DNA from: Anaerolineae bacterium
GTDB lineage: Bacteria > Chloroflexota > Anaerolineae > Fen-1058
Length of the DNA: 64,000 nucleotides
Reading direction: 5' to 3'
NCBI GenBank assembly: GCA_046328575.1
Contig: JAXLWI010000003.1
Span: forward strand, 52-64,051
Position numbers and translations under genes: made by a program. Shown piece after piece: positions 6,701 through 32,753 of the stretch. The number at the start of each line of letters is the position of its first letter. The stretch's first letter is position 1. The notes below the pieces were generated by a model that worked only from the letters and a program-made list of their open reading frames with translations, ran no database searches and was not told where the DNA came from.

Positions 6701-6758
6701 CTGCGAACGCAGAATTCAGAACAGCGACTGCGTACGAACCCATCTACTCTCGATTGAC

Positions 6759-7994: not shown

Positions 7995-10900
7995 GTGATG
8001 TTAAACAAATCTAGATCCTCTTCCTCAGAATCACAAGATTTTGCCAATGGCCTCAGTCTGATGAGCCAGATTGGTCAGGCGATTGTTGCCACACTGGAGC
8101 CAGGTAAACTGATTGAGGAAATCTACCATCAGACACACAAAGTCATCCCGGCCAACATCTTTACCCTTTCTCTGTTTACCGATGACCCGAATTGGATAGA
8201 TATGTTTGCGGTGGATAAGGGGCAAGTCGTCCAGGAGCGGCGTCGCATCGGCACCCTCACCCGATGGGTGGTCGAGCAGCGCACGCTGTTTTCTACGCCC
8301 GATGATCAAGTACAACTTCCTCCTGTACCAGTCACACGAATCGAAACCGACACCGTTGAAGAACCGCGTGCCTATATATTGATCCCGATGATCACCCACG
8401 ACAAAGTTGTAGGCGTCATCTCAGTTCAAAGTTATGAGCCGGATGCTTTCAATGACATGCATCTTGCCATGCTATCGGCCATCGCCAGCCACTCGGCGAT
8501 TGTGATTGAGAATAACCGTCTACTGGCCCAAGCGCAACACCGTGCCGCCGAACTGGCCAGTTTGGAACGGATCGGCTACGAACTGGCACGCCTGACGAAC
8601 ATTGAGGATGTGCTGAAGAAGATCATTACTGAGGCCAAAGACCTGCTCACAGCCGATTCCATGTCGATTTTTGCGTATGATGAGCGGCGCGGCAAGTTTC
8701 GCCCCCCGGCTTTTATTCTCAGGCCTGGAGCCGCCGGGCCTGTCGCGCGTGAACGACCACCGCGCGAGATTGGTCTGACCATCAGGGTTGTTCGACTTCA
8801 CTGTGCCATTTTTACCGAAGTCGCGGCGGACGGTCAAGTACTGTTTGCGGAGACCCCGATCGGCCAAAACGTCGAAGTGGCTCAACGGAAGACCTTTGAG
8901 TTTACCGACCAGGACACGCTCGAATTCTTGCAGGCGCAGAATGTGCGCTCATCCATTGGCTTTCCACTTAGCGCGGGTCGGGATATTGTAGGCGTGCTGT
9001 ATATTAACTACCAACGGCCGCATACCTTCGGCCAGGATGAGTTCCAAACCATCGGCCGATTGGCGCAATATGCGGGCACGGCGATCCAACGGGCCAACGT
9101 CTACGGCGAGATCCGAGCGTTGCATCAGGCGGGCCATGCGCTGACCGGGCAAACCGAGATGCGAGCCGTGCTCAACAAACTCGTCGAGTATGGACATGAA
9201 GTGCTGGGGGCCGATCTGATTACGGTCTTTCCCTATCATGCCGGGGCGGACGAGTTTGAACTGCCGCCGGTCGTGTCAGGCGTGGCCCTGAAACCGGACC
9301 AACTTTTGCCGCCGCAAATCAAGTCCGATGATACTGTACGCCGGATCGTAACAGAGAAAAGCGCCCACTTCAGTCGAGACGCGCAGATAGATCCTTTGCT
9401 GGCAGGGTCCGATCCGGCTCTGCGGGAGTCTCGCTTTGTGAGTCGGGAGCAGATTGTCTCGGCGGCGGCGATTCCTTTACGTACCAACGATGATGTCGTA
9501 GGCGCACTGTTTTTCAATTATCGAACCCGGCAACGATTTGGCTCTCATCAGCGGACACTGATCGAAACCTTTGCGGCGTATGCGGCGACGGCCATTCAAC
9601 GGGCTCGATTGCTAGACCGCCGCCTCAAGGAGTTGCGGGCGCTGGCTGAGATTGATGCGGCGATCACATCGGGCAGTCTGCGAGATGTGTTGGACAAAAT
9701 CATTCAGTCAGCGTGTGAGATCGTGGGCGCCAAAGATGGCAATATTCTCTTGTTACATGAAAGTGGAGAGTATCTGTATCTTGCCGCTCGGCAGGGTGAG
9801 GCGTGGCGCAGTGGGGCGCCGGAACGATTTGAAACTGGTACGAGCAGTGTGACTGGCTGGGTTGCCGCGCACAAAAAAACAGCCCGGATTGGCAATGTCC
9901 GTACCGAGGAACCGTGGAAGGACATCTACCTCGAAGTAATCCCTGACATCCAATCGGAATTGAGTGTGCCAATCCTTGATGAGCAGAAGCAGCTGGTTGG
10001 GATCATCTTTTTAGACAGCAAGGCGGCTCACGCTTTTTCGGCCGACGACGAGCGGCTGCTGGAGGCTCTGGCCGGGCAAGCCTATATTGCCATTCGCAAC
10101 CGGCGTCAATTTGAAGCCGAGCAACGCGCACTCCGAGAACTGCACCTGTTGAGAGAGATCGATAACGCCGTCAGTTCGACGCTGAATACCCAAGAAGTCT
10201 TGCAGCTGATTGTGGACAAGATCGATACGTTAATTGATGCCCCGATCTTCGTCGTGATGCTGGCTGATGAACGGCGAGGAGATTTGTATCAAGCCGCCGG
10301 GCGAGGAGTAGTTGCAGATCTCAAGTATCATCGTCAGAAGATAGGTACAGGGATCGTAGGCCAGGTGGCGCTGACCCATCAAAGTGTGCGGATTGGAGAT
10401 GTTAATGCATTAGTAGGAGAGGTGGATTATCTGCAAGTCGTATCAGACACTCGCTCGGAGTTGGCGGTTCCCATCCTGCAAGGTGACCAACTGGTGGGGG
10501 TGCTGAACGTTGAAAGTCCTCAAGTGAACGCGTTCAATGCGGACGATGAGCGACTGTTGAACAGCCTAGCCTCACTGGCAGTCGTCGGGATCCAAAACTC
10601 ACGTCTCTATGAACAGGAGCAGCGTTCCCGAAAGGTGATAGACATCTTGCGCGACGTCGATAAAGCGATCGCTTTCTTGGCTGTTAATCCGCCCGATCAT
10701 CCCGTGCAAAGCCTCGCGGAGGCATTGAGTCCGGTGCTCCAAATTATCCTCAACCGTGGCCTGGAAGCTGTCGGTGCGGTGGTAGGTAGTATCATGTTGT
10801 ATGATGAGGCGACCGATGACTTATATATGGCGGCCGAGCAGGGAGTCTTGTCAGAGTATCGAAACGCGCGACAGAAGATCGGCCAAGAAAAAGGTATCAT

Positions 10901-12887
10901 TGGAAAGGTAGCGTTAGAGAGACAAATATTGCGGATAGATGACGTAACCGCTACACCTTGGAACACCCAGTATCAAGAGTATACGCCCGGAATGCGTTCA
11001 GAATTGGCTGTACCGCTGATGCACCAAAACCGATTAGTGGGTGTCCTCAACGCTGAAAGCCCTCGGATGAGCGCTTTCGGACCTGACGAGGAAAACCTGT
11101 TCGAGACCTTAGCCGGGCAGGCCGTGATCGCATATTTGAATGCGGAAAGATATCAAGCCCTGCAAACGCTCCGAGATATCAATCAATTGCTAGCTTCAGG
11201 CTATGATACCAGTGAAGTGCTGAAGTTGATCTTGGAGTATGCCTGCACCTTCTTCCGGGTCAAGTGGGGAAACCTACGGGTATATGATCCCAGTGGCCGC
11301 CCTACGCGTGACTACGTACTGGTCACGTCAGCCTTGGATCACGCTCCTGACATCCGGGTGATTGATTTACGATTGGCCACTCATGAACGTTGGCTCGATA
11401 GAGGCATCGTGGACTGGGTTGCGCAGCATCGCACGCTGTTTCGCTCTCAGGGTGATGTGCGCAACGATCAACGCTTTTTGAGCTTTCCAGGCCTTGAGAT
11501 TCGTTCGGAGATGACCGCGCCGCTTTCAGTTGGGCCGGATCTAGTGGGCGTGCTGAACCTGGAGAGCGAACGTCCCGGTGCCTTTGATGAAGAGGATGAA
11601 AATCGAATGGGGGACTTCAGCGCGCAGGCCGCGCTGGCCGTGCAGAATGCACGTAACCTGGCCGAGTTGCAAGAGACACAGGAGCGCTTTTCAGCCCTCT
11701 ATGAAGTGGGGAGCGAGATTATCACGGCTCCCTTGAATGAACAGAAGATTCTTGAAATTGCCCTGAATGCCGGGCTAAACCGCACCGGGGTCTTCCACGC
11801 AATTGCCTGGCAACCCGATCGAGACGGCAAACAATTGGAAGCGCGTCTGGTGCTGGGCGAGCAGCAATCCGAGCCGCACGAGCCTATTCCCCGCGATGGC
11901 ACACTTGTTAACAGCGTGGCATGGCAAAAGCGGTCAGAGATCCTGGTCGACGACGTGACAGCGCCACCGGAGGGAGTAAAGCATCGGCCCGGATATACGC
12001 GGACAGGCTCAATGCTGGTTATGCCGATGATGGCAGGCGGCGAGTATTTCGGCAACCTGGACTTTCGGCACAAAGACCCTCACGGATTCAAACAGGAGGA
12101 AATCCGCCTGCTCAATGGCTTGACTGCGCAAGCGGCCAATGCAATACGTCGCATCCGCCATGAAAGAGAACTGGACCAATTCCGACAACGTGAGCACGAA
12201 GCGCGAGCCATGACAGATATTGGTATGGCTGCCGGCGAATTGGGGCACCGGATTGGTAATAAACTTGGCCTATTCAAAACTCATATTGAGGCAATCAAAG
12301 AACAGATTGGCTCGAGTTATCAAGATATCACTCGACGACTGGACTATATGTCAACAAATGTGCAATACTTGCTAACGTTAACCCAACAGTTGAAGCAAGA
12401 ATTGAATGACCGAACGAGTGGAGTTAAGAAGCAGAAAAAGGATTATTCTGCAGCAGTTGTGTTATTTGAAGCATGTAACTCGAAGACTCCGTCGGAATTC
12501 ATTCATGTGCAAATGGACCCTCCAACAGACGACCTTATAGTGAGGGCGGATGATAGCATTTTTGATGCTTTCATTAATATCTACAGTAATGCAATTGAAG
12601 CGCTTGAGTTGCAGGGCGGCACAATCTATATGAGTGCCTGTCAAATTAATGGTTGGATTGAATTCAGGATAGCAGATGATGGCCCGGGCATAGAAGCAGG
12701 AAAACTCGACAAGATCTTTAACTTGTTCTATTCGACCAAGCAAAATAGTCTGGGTTTTGGATTGTTTAGCGCTAAACAACGGGTATTGGCCAACGGTGGA
12801 CAAATCGAAGTACACAGTAAGATTGGAGAAGGGACCACGTTTATAATTCGACTGCCGTCAGCGTTAGCCAAAGAGGTGCGATCATGA
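7995..12887 (+). CDS. Sensor histidine kinase with eight tandem GAF domains and an NtrB-like kinase core (H-box GELGHRIGNKLG, N/G1/G2 boxes NIYSNAIEA/DDGPGI/GFGLF)
   Basis: 1630 aa. Repeated GAF signature (SELAVPIL.GD.LVGVLNVES.....F...DE.LL) about 8 times. C-terminal HATPase_c. Probable start ATG 7998 (GTG 7995 in the ORF track). Stop overlaps the next start (ATGA). Confidence 0.85.
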   Translation: MMLNKSRSSSSESQDFANGLSLMSQIGQAIVATLEPGKLIEEIYHQTHKVIPANIFTLSLFTDDPNWIDMFAVDKGQVVQERRRIGTLTRWVVEQRTLFSTPDDQVQLPPVPVTRIETDTVEEPRAYILIPMITHDKVVGVISVQSYEPDAFNDMHLAMLSAIASHSAIVIENNRLLAQAQHRAAELASLERIGYELARLTNIEDVLKKIITEAKDLLTADSMSIFAYDERRGKFRPPAFILRPGAAGPVARERPPREIGLTIRVVRLHCAIFTEVAADGQVLFAETPIGQNVEVAQRKTFEFTDQDTLEFLQAQNVRSSIGFPLSAGRDIVGVLYINYQRPHTFGQDEFQTIGRLAQYAGTAIQRANVYGEIRALHQAGHALTGQTEMRAVLNKLVEYGHEVLGADLITVFPYHAGADEFELPPVVSGVALKPDQLLPPQIKSDDTVRRIVTEKSAHFSRDAQIDPLLAGSDPALRESRFVSREQIVSAAAIPLRTNDDVVGALFFNYRTRQRFGSHQRTLIETFAAYAATAIQRARLLDRRLKELRALAEIDAAITSGSLRDVLDKIIQSACEIVGAKDGNILLLHESGEYLYLAARQGEAWRSGAPERFETGTSSVTGWVAAHKKTARIGNVRTEEPWKDIYLEVIPDIQSELSVPILDEQKQLVGIIFLDSKAAHAFSADDERLLEALAGQAYIAIRNRRQFEAEQRALRELHLLREIDNAVSSTLNTQEVLQLIVDKIDTLIDAPIFVVMLADERRGDLYQAAGRGVVADLKYHRQKIGTGIVGQVALTHQSVRIGDVNALVGEVDYLQVVSDTRSELAVPILQGDQLVGVLNVESPQVNAFNADDERLLNSLASLAVVGIQNSRLYEQEQRSRKVIDILRDVDKAIAFLAVNPPDHPVQSLAEALSPVLQIILNRGLEAVGAVVGSIMLYDEATDDLYMAAEQGVLSEYRNARQKIGQEKGIIGKVALERQILRIDDVTATPWNTQYQEYTPGMRSELAVPLMHQNRLVGVLNAESPRMSAFGPDEENLFETLAGQAVIAYLNAERYQALQTLRDINQLLASGYDTSEVLKLILEYACTFFRVKWGNLRVYDPSGRPTRDYVLVTSALDHAPDIRVIDLRLATHERWLDRGIVDWVAQHRTLFRSQGDVRNDQRFLSFPGLEIRSEMTAPLSVGPDLVGVLNLESERPGAFDEEDENRMGDFSAQAALAVQNARNLAELQETQERFSALYEVGSEIITAPLNEQKILEIALNAGLNRTGVFHAIAWQPDRDGKQLEARLVLGEQQSEPHEPIPRDGTLVNSVAWQKRSEILVDDVTAPPEGVKHRPGYTRTGSMLVMPMMAGGEYFGNLDFRHKDPHGFKQEEIRLLNGLTAQAANAIRRIRHERELDQFRQREHEARAMTDIGMAAGELGHRIGNKLGLFKTHIEAIKEQIGSSYQDITRRLDYMSTNVQYLLTLTQQLKQELNDRTSGVKKQKKDYSAAVVLFEACNSKTPSEFIHVQMDPPTDDLIVRADDSIFDAFINIYSNAIEALELQGGTIYMSACQINGWIEFRIADDGPGIEAGKLDKIFNLFYSTKQNSLGFGLFSAKQRVLANGGQIEVHSKIGEGTTFIIRLPSALAKEVRS

Positions 12888-13303
12888 GAGTGCTAATAAT
12901 AGACGAAGATCGGTATTGGCGTGAGATGGCCTGGATGTGCCTGCGACAGGTGGGGTACCGTGTAGACGCGGTTGCTGATTCTCTCCGGCTACAACAGTTT
13001 CTCGCAAAGTGTCCGGATATCATCTTATTGGGATTCTCAGTCATTCGGCCACATGACGAAGATCTAGTCGCCTGTGTACGCAGAACCTGCCCTCAGGCCA
13101 TGACGCTGGTGTTCTCGACATCTTGGCCGATTGCCCAGGCAATCGAGAGACGTTTGCTGCGTAGCGGAGTTGTTGATGTAATGGGGCGCTCTAGCTTCGA
13201 CTGTGATCTGGTTAGCCTTGTCGAGAATGAATATGCTAATCAAACTCAAGAGACGGCTTTGCTCTCAATCTATGGGCGATTCCGTCTACAGGGAGCGAAG
13301 TGA
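12884..13303 (+). CDS. Degenerate (pseudo-)receiver domain protein; phospho-acceptor Asp replaced (PDIILLGFSV)
   Basis: 139 aa with CheY-like fold signature (MRVLIIDEDRYW..., LVFSTS) but Gly at the phospho-acceptor Asp position and no conserved Lys. ATG overlaps the kinase stop. Confidence 0.55.
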   Translation: MRVLIIDEDRYWREMAWMCLRQVGYRVDAVADSLRLQQFLAKCPDIILLGFSVIRPHDEDLVACVRRTCPQAMTLVFSTSWPIAQAIERRLLRSGVVDVMGRSSFDCDLVSLVENEYANQTQETALLSIYGRFRLQGAK

Positions 13304-14910
13304 TGGCGGAACGACGAGTATTAATCGTTGACGATGAAATCGAATGGCAGGAAGAACTGCGTCACATTCTTGTCGGAGGGGGCTATCAAGTTGACACGGC
13401 AGGAAGCCTGGAAGTTGCCTTTGCGTATCTCAACAATCGTCTTTATCACCTGGTCATCATTGACATACGACTGGCAGATCGGGATGTAGACAATGTTGAA
13501 GGCATGAGGATCCTTGAAGAATTACATGCACGTTACGATGATACGACGTTGTCGAAAATCATGATTTCTGCCTATGGCACGCGCGAGCAGATGCGAAAGG
13601 CATTTAAGCAGCACAAGGTCGCCGATTTCATTTCTAAACAAGAATTTGACAAATGCGAGTTTCTGACAATCGTTGAAGACACCTTCATTCAAAATGTTAG
13701 AGTGAATCCGAAACTTGACATTGTTTTAGAGGATGGTTTGTCTTTCGAGAATATGATTGTCGGTATCATTTCCCGCGATGGCAAGCGCGTTAAGAGCGCC
13801 GATGCCGATGTGCCGCGGCTTGTCATGGAACTCGAAGATTTGTTTTGCCGTTTGTTTTATGACGATATGCGCATTATCGTACGAAGGGTTACCTTGGGTC
13901 GTGGCAAAGCGGGTGTTGTCAAGGTGGCACCATTCTCGCATGATGGACATGATGAAACTGTGATTGTTAAGTATGGCGATCATGAAGAAATCGCTCGCGA
14001 GTGTCAAAACTATGAGGACTGCGTCAAGGGCAAGATCGGCATGTTATCCACCAATGTCCTCAATTTGAAAAGAACTCCGTTGTTGGGTGGTGTCGTCTAT
14101 TCGCTGATCGGCACACGTGTTGAAGAGATTGTCGACTTTGCCGAGTTTTATCACAAGCACCCGACTGACCGGATCAAGACAGTTCTCGACCACTTGTTTA
14201 AAGAAACATGTGGCAACTGGTATACTGACCGTGGTAAAGTTCAATACTGCCACCTTGACGACATGTATGAAAAGGCTCTTGATTTTCGGCACTCTCAATT
14301 AATAGATGCTCTGGAAGATAACTTTCCGCATTACCTGGATCAAAAAATACTTGCCTTTCGCGATCTTCCCGACGTGCACGTTCCAAATCCGGCCTATGCG
14401 GTCAAAGGATCAGCGTTCTCTCAGTTGACCTTTGCTTGCACGACCCACGGCGATCTCAATGCTAACAATATCCTAATTGATGTCAATGATCACACGTGGC
14501 TGATCGACTTCTATCGCACAGGTGCAAGCCACATCCTGCGGGATTGCATCCAGTTGGAAACAGTCATCAAATTCGTCTTATTGCCGGGGGTCTTGCAATC
14601 AGGCGAGGAACTAACTGCACGCTATCATCTCGAAAGGGCATTGCTGAACATGAATCGTCTTAAAGAGGCCGACACTTTACATTATGAAGCGCCCCACGAA
14701 GAATATGCGAAGGCCTTTGAAGTTTGTCGCCGATTGCGACAGATTGCCCGCGATTTGGTGCATCCCAACGATGACTTTGCCGAGTACGCAATTGGCCTCT
14801 TATACTGTAGCATGAACACACAGCGTTTCTACAAGCTGCCTAAAATTAACCGCTTGCATGCGCTGCTTGCAGCGGGTATGTTGTGCCAGAAATTGGGGAT
14901 CAACGCCTGA
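13300..14910 (+). CDS. Response regulator: canonical receiver domain fused to a protein-kinase-like / aminoglycoside-phosphotransferase-like domain
   Basis: N-terminal receiver (VLIVDDE..., LVIIDIRLAD, IMISAYGT, FISKQ). C-terminal PKL motifs: Gly-rich loop GRGKAGVVKV, VIVKYG Lys, catalytic HGDLNANNILID, DFG-like LIDFYRTG. Confidence 0.6.
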   Translation: MMAERRVLIVDDEIEWQEELRHILVGGGYQVDTAGSLEVAFAYLNNRLYHLVIIDIRLADRDVDNVEGMRILEELHARYDDTTLSKIMISAYGTREQMRKAFKQHKVADFISKQEFDKCEFLTIVEDTFIQNVRVNPKLDIVLEDGLSFENMIVGIISRDGKRVKSADADVPRLVMELEDLFCRLFYDDMRIIVRRVTLGRGKAGVVKVAPFSHDGHDETVIVKYGDHEEIARECQNYEDCVKGKIGMLSTNVLNLKRTPLLGGVVYSLIGTRVEEIVDFAEFYHKHPTDRIKTVLDHLFKETCGNWYTDRGKVQYCHLDDMYEKALDFRHSQLIDALEDNFPHYLDQKILAFRDLPDVHVPNPAYAVKGSAFSQLTFACTTHGDLNANNILIDVNDHTWLIDFYRTGASHILRDCIQLETVIKFVLLPGVLQSGEELTARYHLERALLNMNRLKEADTLHYEAPHEEYAKAFEVCRRLRQIARDLVHPNDDFAEYAIGLLYCSMNTQRFYKLPKINRLHALLAAGMLCQKLGINA

Positions 14911-14921
14911 GAGGATGAACC

Positions 14922-16487: not shown

Positions 16488-16513
16488 AGTCAAACCGTAG
16501 TCAGTATTGCCCA

Positions 16514-19500
16514 ATGAAAACTACCTCTATAGCATCTAACTCGAGGGCGCAAGGTCTTGCCGACGGCCTCAGCCTAATGAGCCAGATTGGTCAGGCGATC
16601 GTTGCCACGCTGGAGCCAGGTGAACTCATCGAGGAAATCTACCATCAGACCCACAAGGTCATCCCGGCCAACACCTATACCCTCTCTTTGCTCACCGATG
16701 ACCCAAATTGGATAGACATGTTTGCGGTCGATGAAGGACAAATTGTCCAGGAGCGGCGGCATATCGGCACCCTCACCCGATGGGTGGTCGAGCATCGCAC
16801 ACCGTTTGCTACGCCCGATGATCAAAGGCAACCTCCTCCGGTAGCGGTCACGCGAATCGAGACTGGTGTCGCTGATGAACCGCGGGCCTACATTCTCATC
16901 CCGATGGTTACCCACGATAAAGTCGTCGGCGTCATCTCGGTTCAAAGTTATGAGCCGGATGCTTTCAATGACGTGCATCTTGCCATGCTGTCGGCCATCG
17001 CCAGCCACTCGGCGATTGTGATAGAGAATAACCGTCTGCTGGCGCAGGCCCAGCATCGTGCTGCCGAACTGGCCAGTTTGGAGCGGATCGGCTACGAACT
17101 GGCGCGCCTGACGAACATCGAGGATGTGCTCAAGAAGATCATTACCGAGGCCAAAGACCTGCTCAACGCCGACTCCATGTCGATCTTTGCGTATGATGAG
17201 CGGCGCGGCAAGTTTCGACCCCCGACCTTTCTTCTCAAACCCGGAGCCGTCGGGCCGGTCGCACGTGAACGACCACCGCGCGAGGCTGGTCTGACGATCA
17301 GGATTGTTCGACATCACTGTGCCATTTTTACCGAAGTCAAGGCGGACGGTCAAGTGCAGTTTGCAGAGATCCCGATCGGTCAAAACTTCGAAGTGGCACA
17401 ACGGAAGACCTTTGAGTTTACCGACCAGGACACACTCGAATTCTTGCAGGCGCAGAATGTTCGCTCGTCCATCGGCTTTCCACTCAGCGCGGGTCGGGAT
17501 ATTGTGGGCGTGCTGTACGTCAACTACCAGCAGCCGCATGCCTTTGGCCAGGATGAGTTGCAGACCATTGGTCGATTGGCGCAATATGCGGGCACGGCGA
17601 TCCAACGGGCCAATGTGTATGGTGAGATCCGAGCGCTGCATCAAGCGGGCCACGCGCTGACCGGGCAAACCGAGATGCGGGCCGTGCTCAACAAACTCGT
17701 GGAATATGGGCACGAGGTGCTAGGGGCCGATCTGATTACGGTCTTCCCTTATCATGCCGGGGCGGACGAATTCGAACTGCCGCCGGTCGTGTCGGGCACG
17801 GCTTTGGCCCCCGACAATCTCTTACCGCCACAAATCAGGTCCGATGATACTGTACGCCGGATCGTGACCGAGACAAGCGCCCACTTCAGTCGGGATGCGC
17901 AGACGGATCCTTTGTTGGCAGGGTTCGATCCGGTCTTGCGGCAGTCCCGCTTCGTCACTCGCGAGCAGATTGCATCGGCGGCGGCGATTCCCTTGCGAAC
18001 CAATGGTGATGTCGTCGGCGCTCTGTTCTTCAATTATCGCACCCGGCAACGATTTGGTTCTCATCAGCGTACGCTGATCGAAACCTTTGCGGCGTATGCG
18101 GCGACGGCTATTCAACGGGCCCGATTGCTAGACCGCCGCCTCAAGGAGTTGCGTGCGCTGGCCGAGATTGATGCGGCGATCACATCGGGCAGTCTGCGAG
18201 ATGTGCTGAACAAAATCATTCAGTCAGCGTGTGAGATCGTGGGCGCCAAAGATGGCAACATTCTGTTGTTGCACGAAAGCGGGCAGTATCTGTATCTTGC
18301 TGCCCGTCAAGGTGAGGTGTGGCGCAGTGGCGCGCCGGAACGATTTGAGATTGGTAAGACCGGCGTGCAGGGCTGGGGCGCCGTGCACAAGAAACCAGCC
18401 CGGATTGGCAATGTGCATACCGAGGAACCGTGGAAGAATATTTACCTCGAAGTGATCCCCGGCATCCAATCGGAATTGAGTGTGCCGATCTTGGACGAGG
18501 AGAAGCAACTGGTTGGGATCATCATTTTGGAAAGTAAGGCGGCTCACGCCTTTTCGGCGGACGATGAGCGGTTGCTCGAGGCCTTGGCCGGGCAAGCCTA
18601 TATTGCCATTCGCAACCGGCGTCAATTCGAGGCTGAGCAGCGCGCGCTCCGCGAACTGCATCTGCTGAGAGAGATTGACAGCGCCGTCAGTTCGACACTC
18701 AACCATCAGGCGGTGCTGCAATTTATTGTAGACAAGAGCGATGTTCTGATTGATGCGCCTATCTTCACAGTGATGCTGTATGACGAACGGCGCGGCGATT
18801 TGTATCAAGCAGCGGGACGAGGCATAGTTGCAGATCACAAGTATCATCGTCAGAAGATGGGTACGGGGATCGTAGGGCAAGTGGCGTTGACACGCAGGAG
18901 CGTGCGGGTCGGTGATGTCACTACACTTGCGCAGAATGAAGGCTTTCTACCAGATATGCTCGATACTCGTTCAGAGCTAGCGGTTCCCATCCTGCAAGGT
19001 GACCAATTTGTTGGCGTGCTGAACGTCGAAAGCCCTGAAGTTGACGCGTTCAATGCGGACGATGAACGACTGTTGAAAAGTCTGGGATCGCTGGTCGCTG
19101 TCGCGATCCAAAACAGCCGCCTCTATGAACAGGAACAGCGCGCCCGCCAGGTGATTGATATCTTGCGCGAAGTCGACCAGGCGATTGCCTTCTTAGCAGT
19201 GACTCAACCGGAGAACCTGGCAGACGAATTGAGCCCCATACTGCAAATCCTCCTCAATCGTGGCTTGGATGCGGTGCACGCGCCGGCTGGCAATATTATG
19301 CTGTATGATGATGCCACCGATGATTTATACATGGCGGTCGAGCGTGGTGTGCTGCCCGAACACCGCACCGCCCGCCAGAAGATCGGCGAGGGCGTCGTGG
19401 GCCGCGTCGCAATTGATAAACGAACGTTGCGTATAGATGATGTGAATGTGCCGCCGTGGGATACAGTCTATCAAGGCTACATCTCCGACGTTCGATCTGA

Positions 19501-21430
19501 ACTCGCCGTGCCACTGGTATACAAAGACCGCCTGGTCGGCGTCCTCAACGCCGAAAGCCCACTGGTAAGCGCGTTCGGACCTGAAGATGAGGACCTCTTC
19601 GAAGCCCTGGCCGGGCAAGCCGTGATTGCCTATTTGAACGCCGAACGGTATCAGGCCTTGCAAACCCTTCGCGAAGTCAACCAATTGTTGGCCTCAGGCC
19701 ATGACTCCAACGACGTGCTGAAGTTGATCCTTATCTATACCTGTACCAACTTCCGAGTGGAGTGGGGGAACTTGCGGCTATTTGACCATACAGGACAGCC
19801 GATCCTCGATTACGTCCTGGTTACCTCGGCGCTGGGCATTGACCCGGAAGTACGGGTGATTGAAATTCGACGCGCAACTCATGAAAAATGGCTAGAGAAG
19901 GGCATCGTCAGCTGGGTCGCACAACAACGTGAACTGTTCCGCTCGCAGGGCAATGTGCAGGCAGATCCGCGCTTTCAGAGCTATCCTGGCCTCGAGATTC
20001 GTTCGGAAATGGCTGCGCCGCTGTTGGTTGGCTCAGATCTAGTTGGCGTGTTGAACCTGGAAAGCCAACGTCTAAATGCATTTGATGCAAACGATGAAGA
20101 CCGCATGCGCGACTTCAGTGCGCAGGCCGCACTGGCCGTGCAGAATGCGCGTAATTTGGCCGAGTTGCAAGAGAGCGAGGGGCGCTTTTCAGCCCTCTAT
20201 GAAGTAGGGAGTGAGATTATCACGGCTCCTTTGGATGAACTCAAGATCCTTGAGATTGTTCTGAGTGCCGGACTGAACCGCACGGGGGGCTTCCACGCAA
20301 TTGCCTGGCAACCCGATCGAGAGGGCAAACAATTGGAGGCGCGTCTGGTGCGGGGCGAGCAGCAAGCCGAGCCGCATGAGCCTATTGCACGCGACAGCAC
20401 ACTCGTTAACAGCGTGGCATGGCAAAAGCGGTCAGCGATCCTGGTCGACGATGTGACCGTGCCACCGGAAGGGACAAAGCATCGGCCTGGACATACGCGG
20501 ACCGGCTCAATGCTGGTGGTGCCGATGATGGCAGGGGAAGAGTATTTCGGTAACCTGGATTTTCGGCACAAAGACCCGCACGGATTCAAACAGGAAGAGA
20601 TTCGATTACTCAATGGCTTGGCCGCGCAGGCCGCCAATTCGATACGCCGTATCCGCCGTGAGAATGAGTTGAAGTCAATCTTACAGAAACAGTTTAACGA
20701 ATTACAAGATGCTTATGATGAATTAAGGATCGCTGACCGGCAAAAGTTGGAGTTTCTCGCGATTGCCTCTCACGAGCTGCGCAAACCATTAACTCCACTT
20801 CGTGTTGTCTTAGAACGGGCCGTTTTGGGTGAATACTCGCCATTAGAATTGCTGGATAAAATGCGGCTCGCCCTTGATCGTACCCAGCATCTAACAGGTA
20901 TCGTCGATCAACTTCTGAATATCGCTAGGATTGAAGCTGGCAAGATTAAGCCTGAGTTTGGAACTCATAGTGTAGTTGACTTGATAAAAAGATCGTTAAC
21001 AAGTATTCAGCATGTTGCCGAGAATAAAGGCATTCAGCTAATATCTGAATTGCCAACCGAATCGATCACCGCCGAAATCGATCAAGGTAAAATTAGCCAA
21101 GTGCTTGATAACCTCCTAGACAATGCTCTCAAACATACCGAGGCAGGCGGTTGTATTACAGTTTCATGTATTCACCTCAAGCCTGAAGACGACGTCATCC
21201 TCTGCGTCCGTGACACTGGAGAAGGAATACCAGAGAAGGAATACAAGCGAATCTTTGACTGGTTTTATCAGGTCGATCCTTCCCTGACGCGCTCCATTGA
21301 AGGTTTGGGCGTTGGGTTGTATGTCGCTAAAAAGTATATCGATATGCATGGCGGTCAGATCACGGTGAAAAGCGAGGTCGGCAAAGGCAGCACCTTCACT
21401 GTCTTGTTGCCGGCACGTCAGAAGGCATAA
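16514..21430 (+). CDS. Sensor histidine kinase, paralog of 7995-12887 with eight GAF domains but a classical HisKA (LEFLAIASHELRKPLTPL) + HATPase_c core
   Basis: Residues ~1-1340 are ~85-90% identical to the first kinase, then diverge into a PhoR/EnvZ-type core. Start set at ATG 16514 (MKTTSIAS...) by alignment with the paralog; the ORF-track start at 16439 overlaps the previous gene. Confidence 0.85.
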   Translation: MKTTSIASNSRAQGLADGLSLMSQIGQAIVATLEPGELIEEIYHQTHKVIPANTYTLSLLTDDPNWIDMFAVDEGQIVQERRHIGTLTRWVVEHRTPFATPDDQRQPPPVAVTRIETGVADEPRAYILIPMVTHDKVVGVISVQSYEPDAFNDVHLAMLSAIASHSAIVIENNRLLAQAQHRAAELASLERIGYELARLTNIEDVLKKIITEAKDLLNADSMSIFAYDERRGKFRPPTFLLKPGAVGPVARERPPREAGLTIRIVRHHCAIFTEVKADGQVQFAEIPIGQNFEVAQRKTFEFTDQDTLEFLQAQNVRSSIGFPLSAGRDIVGVLYVNYQQPHAFGQDELQTIGRLAQYAGTAIQRANVYGEIRALHQAGHALTGQTEMRAVLNKLVEYGHEVLGADLITVFPYHAGADEFELPPVVSGTALAPDNLLPPQIRSDDTVRRIVTETSAHFSRDAQTDPLLAGFDPVLRQSRFVTREQIASAAAIPLRTNGDVVGALFFNYRTRQRFGSHQRTLIETFAAYAATAIQRARLLDRRLKELRALAEIDAAITSGSLRDVLNKIIQSACEIVGAKDGNILLLHESGQYLYLAARQGEVWRSGAPERFEIGKTGVQGWGAVHKKPARIGNVHTEEPWKNIYLEVIPGIQSELSVPILDEEKQLVGIIILESKAAHAFSADDERLLEALAGQAYIAIRNRRQFEAEQRALRELHLLREIDSAVSSTLNHQAVLQFIVDKSDVLIDAPIFTVMLYDERRGDLYQAAGRGIVADHKYHRQKMGTGIVGQVALTRRSVRVGDVTTLAQNEGFLPDMLDTRSELAVPILQGDQFVGVLNVESPEVDAFNADDERLLKSLGSLVAVAIQNSRLYEQEQRARQVIDILREVDQAIAFLAVTQPENLADELSPILQILLNRGLDAVHAPAGNIMLYDDATDDLYMAVERGVLPEHRTARQKIGEGVVGRVAIDKRTLRIDDVNVPPWDTVYQGYISDVRSELAVPLVYKDRLVGVLNAESPLVSAFGPEDEDLFEALAGQAVIAYLNAERYQALQTLREVNQLLASGHDSNDVLKLILIYTCTNFRVEWGNLRLFDHTGQPILDYVLVTSALGIDPEVRVIEIRRATHEKWLEKGIVSWVAQQRELFRSQGNVQADPRFQSYPGLEIRSEMAAPLLVGSDLVGVLNLESQRLNAFDANDEDRMRDFSAQAALAVQNARNLAELQESEGRFSALYEVGSEIITAPLDELKILEIVLSAGLNRTGGFHAIAWQPDREGKQLEARLVRGEQQAEPHEPIARDSTLVNSVAWQKRSAILVDDVTVPPEGTKHRPGHTRTGSMLVVPMMAGEEYFGNLDFRHKDPHGFKQEEIRLLNGLAAQAANSIRRIRRENELKSILQKQFNELQDAYDELRIADRQKLEFLAIASHELRKPLTPLRVVLERAVLGEYSPLELLDKMRLALDRTQHLTGIVDQLLNIARIEAGKIKPEFGTHSVVDLIKRSLTSIQHVAENKGIQLISELPTESITAEIDQGKISQVLDNLLDNALKHTEAGGCITVSCIHLKPEDDVILCVRDTGEGIPEKEYKRIFDWFYQVDPSLTRSIEGLGVGLYVAKKYIDMHGGQITVKSEVGKGSTFTVLLPARQKA

Positions 21431-21448
21431 ACAAGCTGGAGGCTTCAC

Positions 21449-22963
21449 TTGTCGCAAAATCTCCGGATCCTCATCATCGATGATGATCTCATTGCAACTC
21501 AAGAACTCAAAGAAGCCCTTGAATATGAAGGGTATTCAGTCAGCATAGCATCCGGTGGAGTGGATGGTGTGCGCCTTGCAGAAGAGCTGCTTCCGAGCCT
21601 CATCATCTTGGATGTGATGATGCCGGGAATGGACGGCTTTGAAGTCTGCCGCCTGCTTCAAGCAGGGGCTGAAACGGCGAAAATTCCGATTCTCATGTTG
21701 ACCGCTCGCACTGAAGTACAGGACAGGATCAGCGGGCGCGACCGGGGTGCAATCGTTTATATGACCAAGCCGTACTCGATAAGCGAGCTGCGCGCTCAGG
21801 TCAGGGTTCTGCTCCATCGTTTCCCTAACCCACACCGCTCAGAGTTATCGATCACATACAATAGTCAGCAGGTATTCTCCTTCCAGCTACTGGGTGTTAC
21901 AACGTATGCCAGTGACGGGCGGCATATTCCCCTCGCTCTGGTGGATCTCAATCAAGAACTCGTAGACGTGGGAGATCGAATCAGTGCCTTCCAGAAACTC
22001 CTGGCAGATGCTCCTTCTGACGAACAAAGTGCGCAGTACCATGAAAAACGTGATGTCTGGCGACGGCAAGTTAAGAAGCGCGGCAAAGAACTCCACGATC
22101 AATTCGTCGCCGCCAACTCGGATCTGGTCGAGCAGTTTGGCTTGGCGAAACAAGTATTACGATCAGATGACTTACTTGTCCGCTTTATTGGGCCGCGAGC
22201 GCATCTTGGCCTGCCGTGGGAGCTGCTCCATGACGGCGAGCACGTGCCGTTGGTAATCATGCATCCATCCTGTCGGACAGTAACAAGTATTCATTCTCGT
22301 CACAAGCACGATTCATGGAGTGCCTTCCTCGACAGACTAGATTCCGAGCCGCTGCGTGTTCTGTTGCTTGCTTCGAGTTCAGGCACACCGCTTGAAGAAA
22401 TTCAATATTTAGGTCAATGGTTTAAGCAAGCATTTCGAGATAGGGTAGTTGTCGAACCTGATCCGCCGATAGTTTTGTCCCGACAACAGGCTGAAATCTT
22501 GCTGCGCAAAAAGTCGTTCCACCTCATTCACTACGCCGGTCATAGCAGCTTTGACGGGGTGCGCCCAGATCAAAGCGGGTTACGATTTGGCTCAAAGAGG
22601 GACGATCTGATCACGGCTGGGTGTCTATATGATCTGCTGCTTGATTCGCCGGCCCGGTTGGTTTTCTTGAATTCGTGCGCAGGCGCGCAAGTTGGTGATC
22701 TTGAACGACTCAAAGACAATGATTTTCTGGGCCTAATTGATGTAGCGGTCGTGGCCGGCGTGCCCGCTGTCTTGGGTTTTCGCTGGAATGTGACGAATGC
22801 CGCATCGTTCGAGTTCGCCAAACAGTTCTATGGTCACCTGCTTGAAACTCGGTCTTTGGAGCAAGCGACCTGGCTGACTCGCAAGAGCATCTATCGTGCT
22901 AACGGATGGGACGAAACCTGGCTCTCTCCTATCTTGGTCGTCCAAAATCCTCAATCCTTCTAA
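21449..22963 (+). CDS. Response regulator: receiver domain fused to a CHAT (caspase-like) peptidase domain (second copy)
   Basis: TTG start with SD GCTGGAGG. Canonical receiver (ILIIDDD, LIILDVMMPGMDG, LMLTART, YMTKPY). CHAT motifs HLIHYAGHSSF (His) and LVFLNSCAGAQ (Cys). Confidence 0.75.
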   Translation: MSQNLRILIIDDDLIATQELKEALEYEGYSVSIASGGVDGVRLAEELLPSLIILDVMMPGMDGFEVCRLLQAGAETAKIPILMLTARTEVQDRISGRDRGAIVYMTKPYSISELRAQVRVLLHRFPNPHRSELSITYNSQQVFSFQLLGVTTYASDGRHIPLALVDLNQELVDVGDRISAFQKLLADAPSDEQSAQYHEKRDVWRRQVKKRGKELHDQFVAANSDLVEQFGLAKQVLRSDDLLVRFIGPRAHLGLPWELLHDGEHVPLVIMHPSCRTVTSIHSRHKHDSWSAFLDRLDSEPLRVLLLASSSGTPLEEIQYLGQWFKQAFRDRVVVEPDPPIVLSRQQAEILLRKKSFHLIHYAGHSSFDGVRPDQSGLRFGSKRDDLITAGCLYDLLLDSPARLVFLNSCAGAQVGDLERLKDNDFLGLIDVAVVAGVPAVLGFRWNVTNAASFEFAKQFYGHLLETRSLEQATWLTRKSIYRANGWDETWLSPILVVQNPQSF

Positions 22964-22974
22964 GGAGAACTAAC

Positions 22975-23331
22975 ATGTCTGACCAGCAACCTTCCGATAG
23001 TATCATCGTTTACACCATGCCAGACGTAAGCGAAAAGACCAATGATTATGATCAGATGCGCGGTGATTATGATCAAGAGAGAAAGTGGTTTGGTTCTCCA
23101 AAGCCAACTACAGTCTCATCCGTGAAACTTCAACAGCAGATCAATGTCTTTCTAGTCCAAATGGGCGAAGCGTTGAAAGAAACACCGGCTGAAGTAGGCG
23201 GATTCAAATTAAATGAAATCGAAATCTCGGCCGGAATCACGGCCGGCTTGGAGATTGCGCTGATTGGGTTGGGCAGCGCCAAAGGTGAACTCACGGGGGG
23301 ATTACGCTTTACGTTTAAGCGTTCAGAATGA
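22975..23331 (+). CDS. Small (118 aa) protein resembling the Trypco2 / CU044_2847-type domain that co-occurs with trypsin/CHAT peptidases in conflict systems
   Basis: Strong SD AAGGAGA 6 nt before ATG 22975. C-terminal half (FKLNEIEISAGITAGLEIALIGLGSAKGELTGGLRFTFKR) matches the alternating beta-strand pattern I recall for Trypco2; from memory, not a search. Stop overlaps the next start (ATGA). Confidence 0.4.
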   Translation: MSDQQPSDSIIVYTMPDVSEKTNDYDQMRGDYDQERKWFGSPKPTTVSSVKLQQQINVFLVQMGEALKETPAEVGGFKLNEIEISAGITAGLEIALIGLGSAKGELTGGLRFTFKRSE

Positions 23332-24743
23332 AGTCTGAAGTCCCACTCACCGCCTCGTATCGATACGCCGAGGTAACCCAAATCTTTCGCCGGGTGAAAG
23401 CCGGCGATTCATGCATGGTCGTCGGCGTGAGCGGCATGGCCAAATCGAATCTGTTTCGACATATCGCTAGACCTGAGATAAGAGAAATATTCTTGGGCTT
23501 GACCTGGCAAAACTACGGGTTTGCGTCGACGGATGTGCATGCCCTCGCGAATCCCAATGAGGCGGGATTATATGAATCTATCTTGCGTAATCTGATACGA
23601 GACACCAAGGAATTAGGCCTAGCAGGCAACGACCTACTCACTTCTGTACAGACTCAGTTTGTGCAACTAGAACGCTTGACGACTGACCGTGAGTTGCCTC
23701 AAGCGCAACGCGCTTTTTTGACGGCGATGGATCTATTCGCGACTAACAGGCAACTACATTTCGTCATACTGCTTGATCAATTCGATGAGATTTTTCCACA
23801 TTTGTCCGCCCGCTGCTTTACCACCTTACGGCATTTGCGAGATCAGCTAAAGTATCGGCTGTCATATATAGTCTTTACACGTGAAGATCTGTCTCGCCGA
23901 GGTCACAATGCAGGAGTTGAAGAATTCACTGAACTACTCACGCCCGCAGTCCTCTGGCTAGGGACCTACTCGCGAGAAGACGCCCAAACTGAAATACGGC
24001 GTGTAGCGGCACGATATGGGATCAAGCCCGATTTTCGCGTAAGTGATCGCTTGATCGATCTCACAGATGGTCATTCCGGGTTGCTGAAGGCAGCTTATCA
24101 GGCTGTAATCGATGGGCGTGCAAACATAGAACTGAATGACAGCGCCATCAGTCTACTAAAGGATTCCAATGTTCAGACGGAATGCATGAAACTCTGGAGT
24201 AGCCTCACCTCAAAAGAGCAGACAACGTTAGTCAGAGCTGCGCTCGGGGGTGAGGTCGGTTCTCCAGTTAACGATACTATCGAGTATCTTGAGCGCAAGT
24301 CTCTACTAACAAAATCCGGTGGTCACTATAAGATTTTCTGCTCATTGTTCGCTGACTTTCTCGTTCAGCAAGCCAGTGGTTCATTTCAAAATCTCACTCC
24401 AGCAGCGGTAAAAACTCACCAAGGTACGCCCAGGAATTTGAAACTCCGTATTGAGACTGAAACGCGGACCGCCTGGCTTGGCTATCAGGAACTCAAGCTA
24501 ACTCCCAATGAGTACAAACTGCTGGACTTGTTGTATCACCGCCGAGGAGCCGTTTGTAGTCGAGACGAGATCGTCCGGCAGGTTTACTCTGTTCGAGTGG
24601 TCGATCCTGCTACGGGTATTGACGATAGTCGTGTCGATACGTTGGTAAGCCGGCTACGAGGAAAGATAAAGGGCGCGGGAGGCGATCCGCACATTGTTAC
24701 GACAGTGTGGGGACAAGGCTTCAAATTAGAAAACGACGAGTAA
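23328..24743 (+). CDS. P-loop NTPase (AAA/STAND-like) fused to a C-terminal OmpR/PhoB-type winged-helix DNA-binding domain
   Basis: Walker A-like VVGVSGMAKSN, Walker B HFVILLDQFDE. C-terminal ~100 aa with trans_reg_C pattern (LTPNEYKLLDLL...VDTLVSRLRGKI...IVTTVWGQGFKL). Confidence 0.65.
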   Translation: MKSEVPLTASYRYAEVTQIFRRVKAGDSCMVVGVSGMAKSNLFRHIARPEIREIFLGLTWQNYGFASTDVHALANPNEAGLYESILRNLIRDTKELGLAGNDLLTSVQTQFVQLERLTTDRELPQAQRAFLTAMDLFATNRQLHFVILLDQFDEIFPHLSARCFTTLRHLRDQLKYRLSYIVFTREDLSRRGHNAGVEEFTELLTPAVLWLGTYSREDAQTEIRRVAARYGIKPDFRVSDRLIDLTDGHSGLLKAAYQAVIDGRANIELNDSAISLLKDSNVQTECMKLWSSLTSKEQTTLVRAALGGEVGSPVNDTIEYLERKSLLTKSGGHYKIFCSLFADFLVQQASGSFQNLTPAAVKTHQGTPRNLKLRIETETRTAWLGYQELKLTPNEYKLLDLLYHRRGAVCSRDEIVRQVYSVRVVDPATGIDDSRVDTLVSRLRGKIKGAGGDPHIVTTVWGQGFKLENDE

Positions 24744-24764
24744 CGCTAGTTTCGCGTTGCCGAA

Positions 24765-25628
24765 TCAATCTAGTTGACTTCGTGGTCGTTTGCGAGGGGA
24801 AGTAGATGGGGGAGTTGGTGCCGTTCCCTCAGCTGGCAACGATGATGGGAAGGATGTTGCAGCCGGACGGGCAATCTTACGTGGTATAGACTGGCTGTCT
24901 TTATCGGGTACAACTATATCCGTTAGGTCAGGCATATTGATGTATTGCTTTCCACCTGCCATAGCTTGCATTGCCTCAATAGCTTCTGTACGCATCGCCT
25001 GTGTTAATTCATAGGGCTCATATTGGCTGAGATCTTGAACATTGACGCCCCGCTGTACCACCGCCTCAAATCGGCTTTGTAGCGCTAGGGGAACCTTAAC
25101 TCGGAGCACCATACCAAAGAGCGGCTTTAATGCTAGTGGCTGAAGACGGCTGGTCAAAACGGCCAAGAATTTCTGCTCCAGCGGCACAAACACTTCTCCT
25201 CGACAAACCTGTTCGGCGTAGAATTCTGGCATTGCCGCCTGCAGCGCTCGCTGAGCGTTGTCTGTCACAATTGCCCGGCGAACAAGCTGCGGCCACTTGA
25301 CGAAGAGAGCTATCTTTTCATGTGGCACTGAGAATGGCTCAAAAACGTAAGCCAGCGCGATTGATAGATCGAGTTGTAGGGCATCGCGAGTTTGGACACT
25401 CGGAATAGGGACTGAGATGAAATCTGGCGCTACGCTGATGACAGAGCGTACTGTCTGAGTAAACGGATTAATCCGGAAAAAACCAGGCCCCATTACTTTG
25501 TCATACTGTTCTAGACGATAAATTACGGCGAGCTCATAGTCACCGACCCAACGTATACCAAAGGGACGTCCAAGGCGAAGTAACAACCGATAAACCATCG
25601 GGGGCCGAGTGTCATGTGAGTCCTTCAT
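24765..25628 (-). CDS. SPFH/band-7-like domain protein with low-complexity Pro/Ser/Thr-rich C-terminus
   Basis: YRLEQYDKVMGPGFFRINPFTQTVRSVISVAPDFISVPIPSVQTRDALQLDLSIALAYV resembles the prohibitin-homology core. Start placed at ATG 25628 (MKDSHD) after CTAGGAGGG. Confidence 0.45.
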   Translation of the reverse strand: MKDSHDTRPPMVYRLLLRLGRPFGIRWVGDYELAVIYRLEQYDKVMGPGFFRINPFTQTVRSVISVAPDFISVPIPSVQTRDALQLDLSIALAYVFEPFSVPHEKIALFVKWPQLVRRAIVTDNAQRALQAAMPEFYAEQVCRGEVFVPLEQKFLAVLTSRLQPLALKPLFGMVLRVKVPLALQSRFEAVVQRGVNVQDLSQYEPYELTQAMRTEAIEAMQAMAGGKQYINMPDLTDIVVPDKDSQSIPRKIARPAATSFPSSLPAEGTAPTPPSTSPRKRPRSQLD

Positions 25629-25682
25629 AGAATACCCTCCTAGCATACCAAAAGAATGTCTTTGTGCTCGTTAAGCCCTGAC

Positions 25683-32653: not shown

Positions 32654-32753
32654 GTAAGGAAGCCTACCTAAGCATAAGGTAATATAGCATAAACTCTCGA
32701 CAAAGACCAACGCCCGATAGACGCTGAGCCTGACTTGGCAGTATAATGCAGCC

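Follow-up and report, generated by a model that had tools for sequence, protein, structure and literature searches.

Two multi-GAF histidine kinases, each linked to a receiver-CHAT protease, in a candidate kinase-gated protease/toxin locus of an Anaerolineae bacterium

The caspase-like proteases that trigger death in bacteria are known to be switched by CRISPR complexes, by cyclic-nucleotide sensors and by STAND NTPases, and two-component signalling is the commonest signalling chemistry that bacteria possess. The two may come together in a locus that we describe here, found in a 64,000-nucleotide stretch of DNA from an Anaerolineae bacterium of the Chloroflexota (assembly GCA_046328575.1, contig JAXLWI010000003.1, positions 52 to 64,051 of the forward strand; hereafter the window, whose own positions are used throughout). 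Eight closely packed, co-directional genes of the + strand occupy positions 7995-24743, as judged from the list of open reading frames (ORFs) and a Pfam scan. They include two sensor histidine kinases (HK1 and HK2), two proteins in which a receiver is fused to a CHAT peptidase domain (REC-CHAT 1 and REC-CHAT 2, hereafter RC1 and RC2), a receiver fused to a TCAD9 domain (REC-TCAD9) and a small protein of the Pepco family. On balance, we favour reading this locus as a two-channel, histidine-kinase-gated protease/toxin system. An earlier reading of the same DNA, made from its letters and ORFs alone (the sequence-only reading), had proposed environmental control of proteolysis by phosphotransfer; its environmental part aside, such kinase-controlled proteolysis is supported by a conserved linkage of kinase and protease genes, by intact residues and by the predicted CHAT fold.

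Closest described systems

In the SsPepco-SsAvs4 modules, Pepco proteins form pre-assembled beta-barrel oligomers that become a lethal membrane pore once a neighbouring protease cuts off their tail, a function shown in a Streptomyces homologue, and the isoleucine at the cleavage site is conserved among the Pepco homologues that accompany serine proteases (Evans et al., bioRxiv 2025, PMC12642450). Like those modules, the window carries a Pepco gene beside a Ser/Cys protease with a fused sensor and a STAND NTPase nearby, and proteolytic activation of a pore-forming toxin is the expected outcome in both. As sensors of Pepco-linked proteases that paper lists FGE domains, STANDs with transmembrane segments and domains that bind peptidoglycan, and its main text contains neither 'receiver' nor 'response regulator' (PMC12642450), whereas the protease of the window is a CHAT domain carried on a phospho-receiver and served by a dedicated histidine kinase. 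The toxin differs as well: the window Pepco has neither the C-terminal tail nor an Ile97-type site, and has a variable N-terminal tail instead.

A second group of relatives is found among the conflict systems described by Kaur, Burroughs, Iyer and Aravind (2020/2021), which share with our locus CHAT or caspase domains, Trypco/Pepco, TCAD9, nSTAND1, EAD7, TIR and PNP, together with filamentous or social hosts and interchangeable effectors. Receivers in those conflict systems occur without histidine kinases, and a kinase-independent function was predicted for them (Kaur et al. 2020, 2021). In contrast to the ternary systems of that group, the locus has no vWA, MoxR or VMAP component, and a multi-GAF kinase is its conserved first gene. 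Pfam, applied to genes between 268 and 41212, detected no vWA, MoxR AAA+ or VMAP gene; although TCAD9 takes its name from the vWA-MoxR ternary systems, the locus is not one of them.

Other comparisons concern the protease and its switch. Craspase (type III-E; Cas7-11/gRAMP with the TPR-CHAT protein Csx29, which cleaves Csx30) senses RNA under crRNA (CRISPR RNA) guidance through a protein complex, whereas the window would rely on His-Asp phosphotransfer to a fused receiver and has no TPR, no CRISPR and no Csx30/31. The SAVED-CHAT proteins of type III CRISPR and CBASS-like systems, in which a small N-terminal signal domain precedes CHAT and signal-induced oligomerisation is thought to activate the protease, respond to a cyclic oligonucleotide bound by SAVED; in the window the signal would instead be a phosphoryl group on the receiver, and no relationship between the two was detected at the sequence level. 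REC-CHAT resembles PleD (REC-GGDEF), CheB (REC-methylesterase) and PorX (REC-PglZ) in that a receiver controls a fused enzyme, and differs from them in having a clan CD peptidase as its output. In PleD and CheB, as in OmpR-family receivers, the usual effect of phosphorylation is to activate the output.

Our searches of the accessible literature returned no study of REC-CHAT or REC-TCAD9, nor of any response regulator with a CHAT-type output, and the sequence-only reading had known of no experimental characterisation of REC-CHAT; databases contain many proteins of both architectures, under no more specific name than 'response regulator'. What seems new is the two-component input to a protease-effector conflict module that is itself of a known kind. 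If our reading is correct, two-component phosphorylation is a further input into caspase-like death machinery, which would join two large fields, response regulators gain a new class of output, and the published expectation of kinase-free receivers (Kaur et al.) is contradicted. A kinase-switched protease could also become a phosphorylation-controlled proteolytic switch for synthetic biology, and the system is compact enough for testing, requiring a single kinase core, a single receiver-protease and a candidate substrate of 118 residues.

REC-CHAT proteases, their kinases and the linkage between them

Both REC-CHAT genes (14922-16487 and 21449-22963) are matched by the Pfam CHAT family, with scores of 101.9 and 82.1 bits against a gathering cut-off of 24. 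In an alignment of 18 REC-CHATs that share 27-61% identity, D55, K107, H361-Y-A-G-H365 and C410 are invariant, and the HYAGHG and LNGCWGA motifs of RC1 and the HYAGHS and LNSCAGA motifs of RC2 fall on the invariant columns of the dyad, so the receiver-CHAT fusions with intact His/Cys dyads of the sequence-only reading are borne out, both as to family and as to the alignment of the catalytic pair. An AlphaFold model of RC2 (predicted local distance difference test, pLDDT, 86.7) contains the receiver (residues 1-125), a middle domain (131-236) made of a hairpin and three helices, and the CHAT domain (242-498), in which H365 lies inside strand 359-367 and C410 follows directly on strand 404-409. 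A sequence search of the PDB with the CHAT domain gave no significant match (8tl0, a 'CHAT domain-containing protein', appears insignificantly), and the profile of the whole REC-CHAT found receivers only; because no CHAT match was obtained in this way, folds were compared, and the modelled domain matches separase and Csx29 and has the caspase-hemoglobinase fold. The CHAT domain of RC1 weakly matches HetF. NCBIfam gave no family-level assignment, and in the representative library, whose top matches are diluted by multi-receiver proteins, full-length REC-CHATs and relatives with the middle and CHAT domains but no receiver each make many clusters at 50% identity.

Alignment to CheY indicates that the receivers of RC2, RC1 and REC-TCAD9 retain equivalents of D12/D13, D57, T87 (Thr/Ser) and K109, and that of RC2 is closest to PleD, RpaA and PhoP-type receivers. 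The 139-aa product of the gene behind HK1 gave no Pfam match at E<=0.01; a jackhmmer search seeded with it converges on receivers, yet it lacks equivalents of Asp57 and Lys109, and we therefore consider it a pseudo-receiver. The first small receiver behind the kinase lacks the Asp in all 12 operons of this type that were examined, so the pseudo-receiver is a conserved component and not a product of decay. The TCAD9 domain keeps a beta3-type Lys (VxK) and the HGDLxxxN and DFG-like WLIDF motifs, a pattern that fits a putatively active APH/protein-kinase-like enzyme, and the REC-TCAD9 architecture of about 535 aa is common to at least 120 clusters. CheY alignment, jackhmmer and Pfam TCAD9 thus agree with the sequence-only reading on both extra members of the first operon, a pseudo-receiver and a receiver-kinase-like fusion.

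The two kinases are alike in their sensors and unlike in their cores. HK1 gave no Pfam match to HisKA or any other dimerisation and histidine phosphotransfer (DHp) domain, even in a lenient rescan, and carries an atypical DHp with the H-box GELGHRIGNKL; across 12 orthologous or paralogous kinases of the HK1 type, the H-box (HR[IL]xN) does not vary, nor do the N, G1 and G2 boxes. HK2 has a DHp and a catalytic and ATP-binding domain recognised by Pfam as HisKA and HATPase_c. No convincing transmembrane segment was found in either kinase, so their GAF sensors are cytoplasmic, and the 'environmental' control of the sequence-only reading is not borne out. Nor does its 'phosphorelay' hold: HK1 and HK2 contain no histidine phosphotransfer (HPt) or receiver domain and no HPt gene occurs among the Pfam-scanned genes of the region, so that with neither HPt domain nor hybrid kinase the arrangement is not a true phosphorelay and is better described as a branched two-component system.

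The sensor arrays of HK1 and HK2 (7995-12130 and 16514-20650) share 83-92% nucleotide identity over GAF1-5 and GAF8 and 64-78% over GAF6-7, and from residue ~1381, the start of the kinase cores, the likeness drops to 19-41% amino-acid identity. Compared with their counterparts in the metagenome-assembled genome (MAG) SMAG_U7929, the window sensors are 45-70% identical in amino acids, and the kinase cores reverse the picture, with 50-70% identity between each window core and its orthologue; sensor values within SMAG_U7929 itself call for caution, as its contigs break inside the sensor repeat. This pattern carries the signature of concerted evolution, or gene conversion, between tandem paralogues. 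Because the sensors are alike and the cores distinct, HK1 and HK2 probably read the same cue and address different receivers.

The linkage of kinase and protease extends far beyond the window. Loci were gathered from the assembly-index neighbourhoods of RC2 homologues and from a scan of 185,579 species genomes with about 545 CHAT-bearing loci, and 80 of them were annotated (numbered with the prefix L below). With genes at contig edges excluded, a histidine kinase read in the same direction lies no more than five genes upstream in 38 of 42 cases of REC-CHAT, and immediately upstream in 26 of the 42; the same holds within five genes for only 2 of 54 CHAT genes that lack a receiver. The kinase/REC-CHAT linkage that the sequence-only reading saw in one genome is therefore conserved, rather than missing, in related loci. 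The hosts represent at least six bacterial phyla, the Chloroflexota, Acidobacteriota, Desulfobacterota/Thermodesulfobacteriota, Bacteroidota, Planctomycetota and Pseudomonadota, with one MAG from the Altiarchaeota. In operons of type 1, a multi-GAF HK1-type kinase is followed by the pseudo-receiver, in some cases by a second, true receiver, then by REC-TCAD9 or a REC-Schlafen/AlbA_2 protein, and by an RC1-like REC-CHAT; in those of type 2, a GAF kinase with HisKA is followed directly by an RC2-like REC-CHAT. The type of kinase core co-varies with the type of REC-CHAT, and RC1-like proteins always occur with HK1-type cores, with a pseudo-receiver and REC-TCAD9 or REC-AlbA_2 in between.

The tandem layout of the window recurs in three other genomes. 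L004 (36% identity) has a type 1 operon followed by a second kinase, a REC-TCAD9 kinase, a REC-CHAT and Pepco. In SMAG_U7929 (~60% identity) the layout is divided between a pair of contigs, L026/L008, of which one ends with a type 1 operon that enters a GAF gene, and the other opens inside a GAF kinase and continues with REC-CHAT, Pepco and an nSTAND1 protein with a winged helix-turn-helix domain (nSTAND1-wHTH). The third case, L088, is a remnant, in which a type 1 operon is followed by a 340-nt spacer, Pepco and nSTAND1-wHTH. This spacer (6625-6963) still codes for ~60 residues from the C-terminal end of an RC2-like CHAT domain, a scar which shows that L088 lost HK2 and the greater part of RC2 by deletion and that the clade had a tandem ancestor.

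Several further genes were seen beside REC-CHAT operons. A paralogue of the alanyl-tRNA synthetase catalytic domain (~446 aa, tRNA-synt_2c 1.9e-61), absent from the window, lies directly upstream of the type 1 kinase in seven relatives (L021, L023, L028, L030, L031, L034 and L036). In six loci from Desulfobacterota (L047, L058, L059, L066, L072 and L074) the REC-CHAT is followed by a conserved protein of 430-475 aa, with no Pfam match and with the shared motif YF.VRLSEMFL...PF.VG...NTR..GP.PY.GDD, perhaps a different substrate or effector. In an Anaerolineales MAG (L006/L009, 11944-14853) and a Blastocatellia MAG (L012), the gene after REC-CHAT encodes an M16 (insulinase-type) peptidase. A metallo-beta-lactamase-fold gene downstream of REC-CHAT in L032 was considered as a protease-activated nuclease and left uncounted, as it also matches tRNase Z.

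Pepco, the proposed mechanism and its rivals

The 118-residue protein encoded directly after RC2 matches Pfam Pepco over residues 10-116 (4.4e-13, 50 bits against a cut-off of 27). As the domain runs to residue 116 of 118, the protein has no C-terminal tail. An amphipathic helix and a Gly-rich hairpin are conserved throughout its eight close homologues, and their N-terminal ~45 residues are variable, charged and Pro-rich, with invariant Y25, R29-G30, R36 and P42. The removable segment may thus lie at the N-terminus here and may be cut after Arg, as is done by many clan CD peptidases. Pepco or Trypco1 occurs one to three genes from REC-CHAT in ~10 of ~43 non-redundant loci, or about a quarter (the window, L001/L008, L004, L088, L040, L046, L034, L024 and L011), and in L040 and L046 a Pepco homologue stands upstream of the kinase. 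We make no claim that the window Pepco and the Trypco1 of L034 are homologous, the HHalign match between them being a non-significant one of 29 columns in the Gly-rich hairpin.

Other loci carry different effectors. REC-Schlafen/AlbA_2, a gene for ~300 aa before REC-CHAT, takes the place of REC-TCAD9 in L018, L021, L023 and L031, and REC-PNP_UDP_1 closes the second module of L089 (16898-18184); given these exchanges, the receiver-fused effectors appear interchangeable. Related multi-GAF-kinase operons contain REC-PNP_UDP_1, TCAD9-AAA and AAA-TIR proteins and a TIR-iSTAND neighbour, and one contains EAD7-REC-CHAT. The suggestion of the sequence-only reading that this is a conflict or cell-death system is strengthened by the pore-forming toxicity of Pepco (PMC12642450), by the recurrence of Pepco and Trypco1, by the swapped effectors and by the TIR and STAND neighbours.

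The general pathway that we propose can be set out as follows. Consider a cell in which a cytoplasmic ligand or state is read by the GAF arrays and switches both kinases. The kinases would autophosphorylate and pass the phosphoryl group to Asp55 of RC2 and to its equivalent in RC1, and, in the HK1 branch, also to the REC-TCAD9 kinase. By analogy with OmpR-family receivers and PleD, phosphorylation would cause the receivers to dimerise, and dimerisation would gather the CHAT domains into an active assembly. The activated protease would then strip an inhibitory tail from pre-formed Pepco oligomers, the tail here probably being the variable, charged, Pro-rich N-terminal ~45 residues with R29-G30 and R36, and the cleaved oligomers would permeabilise the membrane and bring about the death or arrest of the cell, which for a filamentous bacterium would amount to abortive infection or programmed death. 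Within the system, the HK1 branch would be shaped or thresholded by the REC-TCAD9 kinase together with the pseudo-receiver, and the STAND-wHTH paralogues and SPFH proteins would be conserved accessories, possibly in transcriptional control or membrane targeting. The list of parts, the integrity of their residues, the fold and the co-varying linkage form the established basis of this proposal; what the cue is, which way control runs, what the protease cuts and what becomes of the cell we infer from it.

Several observations weigh against this proposal. In about three quarters of the REC-CHAT loci no Pepco or Trypco partner can be recognised, so that across the REC-CHAT family the substrates may be others. 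The characterised Streptomyces protein has a C-terminal tail and an Ile cleavage site, neither of which is present in the window Pepco, whose monomer model is weak (pLDDT 65) and gave no fold match in the PDB. No known defence system of PADLOC-DB 2.0 was matched (weak matches at the level of receiver or CHAT were to SduA, 1e-8, and to PDC-M60B/C and BovA, 3e-4), and no obvious defence-island or mobile-element genes flank the locus in the Pfam-scanned flanks. The related loci were annotated by crude ORF calls and with profiles seeded from domains of the window. Finally, sequence reveals neither the cue nor whether phosphorylation activates or inhibits, nor does it say whether RC1 or RC2 would cut Pepco.

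Some of these same observations would suit non-lethal regulatory proteolysis, in which REC-CHAT cuts a regulator, such as the nSTAND1-wHTH protein, and Pepco is an accessory or adaptor, much as Csx29 acts with Csx30, or as in HetF. Most REC-CHAT loci manage without Pepco, wHTH-bearing STAND paralogues are conserved beside window-type loci, the weak match of RC1 is to a protein of cyanobacterial development, separase and Csx29, which come nearest in structure, are both regulatory proteases with specific cleavage sites, and the locus lies outside any evident defence island. We nonetheless think this unlikely, since Pepco is experimentally a lethal pore former activated by a neighbouring protease (PMC12642450) and the Schlafen/AlbA_2 and PNP partners and TIR neighbours are typical death or immune effectors. 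Because the direction of control is hidden from us, the logic might also be that of an inverted guard, in which phosphorylation keeps CHAT off and the loss of ligand or ATP in infection or stress frees the protease and Pepco; the pseudo-receiver, the extra receivers and the eight GAFs would suit buffering or thresholding, and soluble kinases could watch an internal metabolite. The usual activating effect of phosphorylation on PleD, CheB and OmpR-family outputs speaks against it, the RC2 receiver being closest to the OmpR family, and we consider an inverted guard rather improbable.

Two further explanations would separate the parts of the locus from one another. The receivers might work without kinases, as proposed for vWA-MoxR and STAND systems, and the nearby kinases might serve other regulators; this would accord with the kinase-free receivers that Kaur et al. 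(2020, 2021) saw in conflict systems. To this we give very little credence, given that a kinase stands closely upstream in 38 of 42 loci, that its core type follows the REC-CHAT type, that the phosphotransfer residues are all invariant and that the genes are translationally coupled. Alternatively, the two modules might be independent or decaying paralogous operons with no joint function, their tandem position a by-product of duplication. The loss of HK2 and most of RC2 in L088 would fit, as would the L001-type contigs and many other loci that have one module only, but the eight ORFs are intact with their catalytic residues conserved, the tandem layout has been kept at identities of only ~36-60%, and the sensor arrays have stayed alike while the kinase cores have stayed distinct, all of which makes such independence hard to credit. 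The kinase-gated protease/toxin reading is the one that we retain. On it we would build, though only tentatively and as a possibility that we do not expect to hold in every part, a broader proposal: that soluble multi-GAF kinases are the sensor layer of a widespread and unrecognised class of immune or death systems, found among other phyla in the Chloroflexota, Acidobacteriota and Desulfobacterota, in which His-Asp phosphotransfer takes the place of NTPase oligomerisation or cyclic nucleotides and licenses interchangeable receiver-fused effectors (CHAT, TCAD9, Schlafen/AlbA_2 and PNP). In this context, window-type loci would act as a dual-key trigger of cell death, their gene-converted sensors feeding two phosphotransfer channels, orthogonal to each other, that meet at a single Pepco pore toxin.

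Gene map and neighbourhood

Table 1. Genes of the locus and of its downstream flank (window positions)
Feature	Position	Strand	Description and evidence
HK1	7995-12887	+	Soluble sensor histidine kinase; Pfam GAF x8 and HATPase_c
Pseudo-receiver, 139 aa	12884-13303	+	CheY alignment and jackhmmer; phospho-acceptor Asp and conserved Lys absent
REC-TCAD9	13300-14910	+	Pfam Response_reg and TCAD9 (1.4e-39); weak Kdo/APH
REC-CHAT 1 (RC1)	14922-16487	+	Pfam Response_reg and CHAT (5.7e-29); dyad HYAGHG / LNGCWGA
HK2	16514-21430	+	Soluble; Pfam 8 GAF, HisKA and HATPase_c
REC-CHAT 2 (RC2)	21449-22963	+	Response_reg (7.9e-24) and CHAT (6.4e-23); OmpR-family-like receiver, helical middle domain
Pepco-family protein, 118 aa	22975-23331	+	Pfam Pepco; candidate protease-activated pore-forming toxin
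nSTAND1 NTPase with OmpR-type winged helix	23328-24743	+	Pfam nSTAND1 and Trans_reg_C (2e-16)
SPFH/Band 7 protein	24765-25646	-	Pfam Band_7; convergent with the operon
Second STAND-like NTPase with wHTH	25683-27053	-	Pfam AAA_16/AAA_22 and Trans_reg_C; paralogue of 23328-24743
Third STAND-like NTPase, without wHTH	27312-28391	-	jackhmmer link to the STAND paralogues
Two membrane-anchored SPFH-related proteins	29524-32800	-	Pfam N_BRCA1_IG and Band_7; transmembrane segments

The gene map agrees with that of the sequence-only reading, which had described two co-directional sets of genes that each open with an eight-GAF kinase; the ORF coordinates are the same, and Pfam concurs. Its claim of translational coupling, for which it gave overlaps and gaps of 12-19 nt, can be set beside the junctions: ATGA overlaps join HK1 to the pseudo-receiver and Pepco to nSTAND1-wHTH, a GTGATG overlap joins the pseudo-receiver to REC-TCAD9, and the remaining intergenic gaps measure 11, 26, 18 and 11 nt, the last being the distance from the RC2 stop to the Pepco ATG, with GGAG-type ribosome-binding sites before most of them. 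The listed ORFs of HK2 and Pepco open upstream and run into the preceding genes. An HK2 start at ATG 16514 is likelier than one at TTG 16439, where the listed ORF opens, and ATG 22975 is likewise likelier for Pepco than the listed 22906, from which the longer ORF matches Pfam Pepco at 7.8e-13. All eight ORFs are intact and keep their catalytic residues. Of the two genes said to follow the second operon, the NTPase-wHTH is as described and the Trypco2-like protein goes in Pfam by the name of Pepco; the authors of PMC12642450 handle Pepco, Trypco1 and Trypco2 as synonyms. The flanking SPFH gene of that reading is present too. Rfam and tRNA scans gave no matches, and a scan for promoters and terminators, uninformative for Chloroflexota, gave no clean internal terminators.

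The nSTAND1 match (39.9 bits, cut-off 27.1) is accompanied by the Walker motifs GVSGMAKS and LLDQFDE, and the protein has a wHTH in the place of a C-terminal repeat sensor, of which there is none. The gene is kept after Pepco in L001/L008 and L088. Indeed, all three window-like loci keep the convergent SPFH gene and the two further STAND-like NTPases (window 24765-28391): the SPFH gene has orthologues at the same position in L001/L008 and, with 62% identity, in L088, the gene at 25683-27053 is conserved in L001/L008 and, with 52% identity, in L088, and 27312-28391, which gave no Pfam match at 1e-3, is kept in both as well. Of the SPFH-related pair beyond them, the protein of 29524-31374 has an Ig-like domain and the second gene lies at 31349-32800; homologues stand beside type 1 operons in L023, L028 and L030 and are absent from L001/L008 and L088, and we include the pair in the system tentatively.

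The best NCBIfam match of both the RC2 receiver (21449-21830) and the wHTH of the nSTAND1 protein (24440-24743) is RpaB. An OmpR-type regulator seemingly may have been split between protease and NTPase, though the shared match may be a coincidence. Over the effector genes (12000-28000) the G+C content is 0.47-0.51, lower than in the GAF arrays (~0.55) and in the flanks (0.57-0.60), and this dip at 12-28 kb may reflect horizontal origin or gene-specific composition. Farther away, 268-1599 (- strand) encodes a 443-aa protein with an N-terminal match to FAIM1 (Fas apoptotic inhibitory molecule; 8.8e-10), and 57640-60792 (+ strand) a 1050-aa NB-ARC/AAA, TPR and BTAD protein, an AfsR-like STAND regulator with the BTAD at its C-terminus. 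A third, smaller kinase of GAF-PAS-HisKA architecture (33928-36189, + strand) adjoins a RadA/Sms-like gene with a zinc ribbon, a KaiC-like ATPase and Lon_C (36207-37586, + strand).

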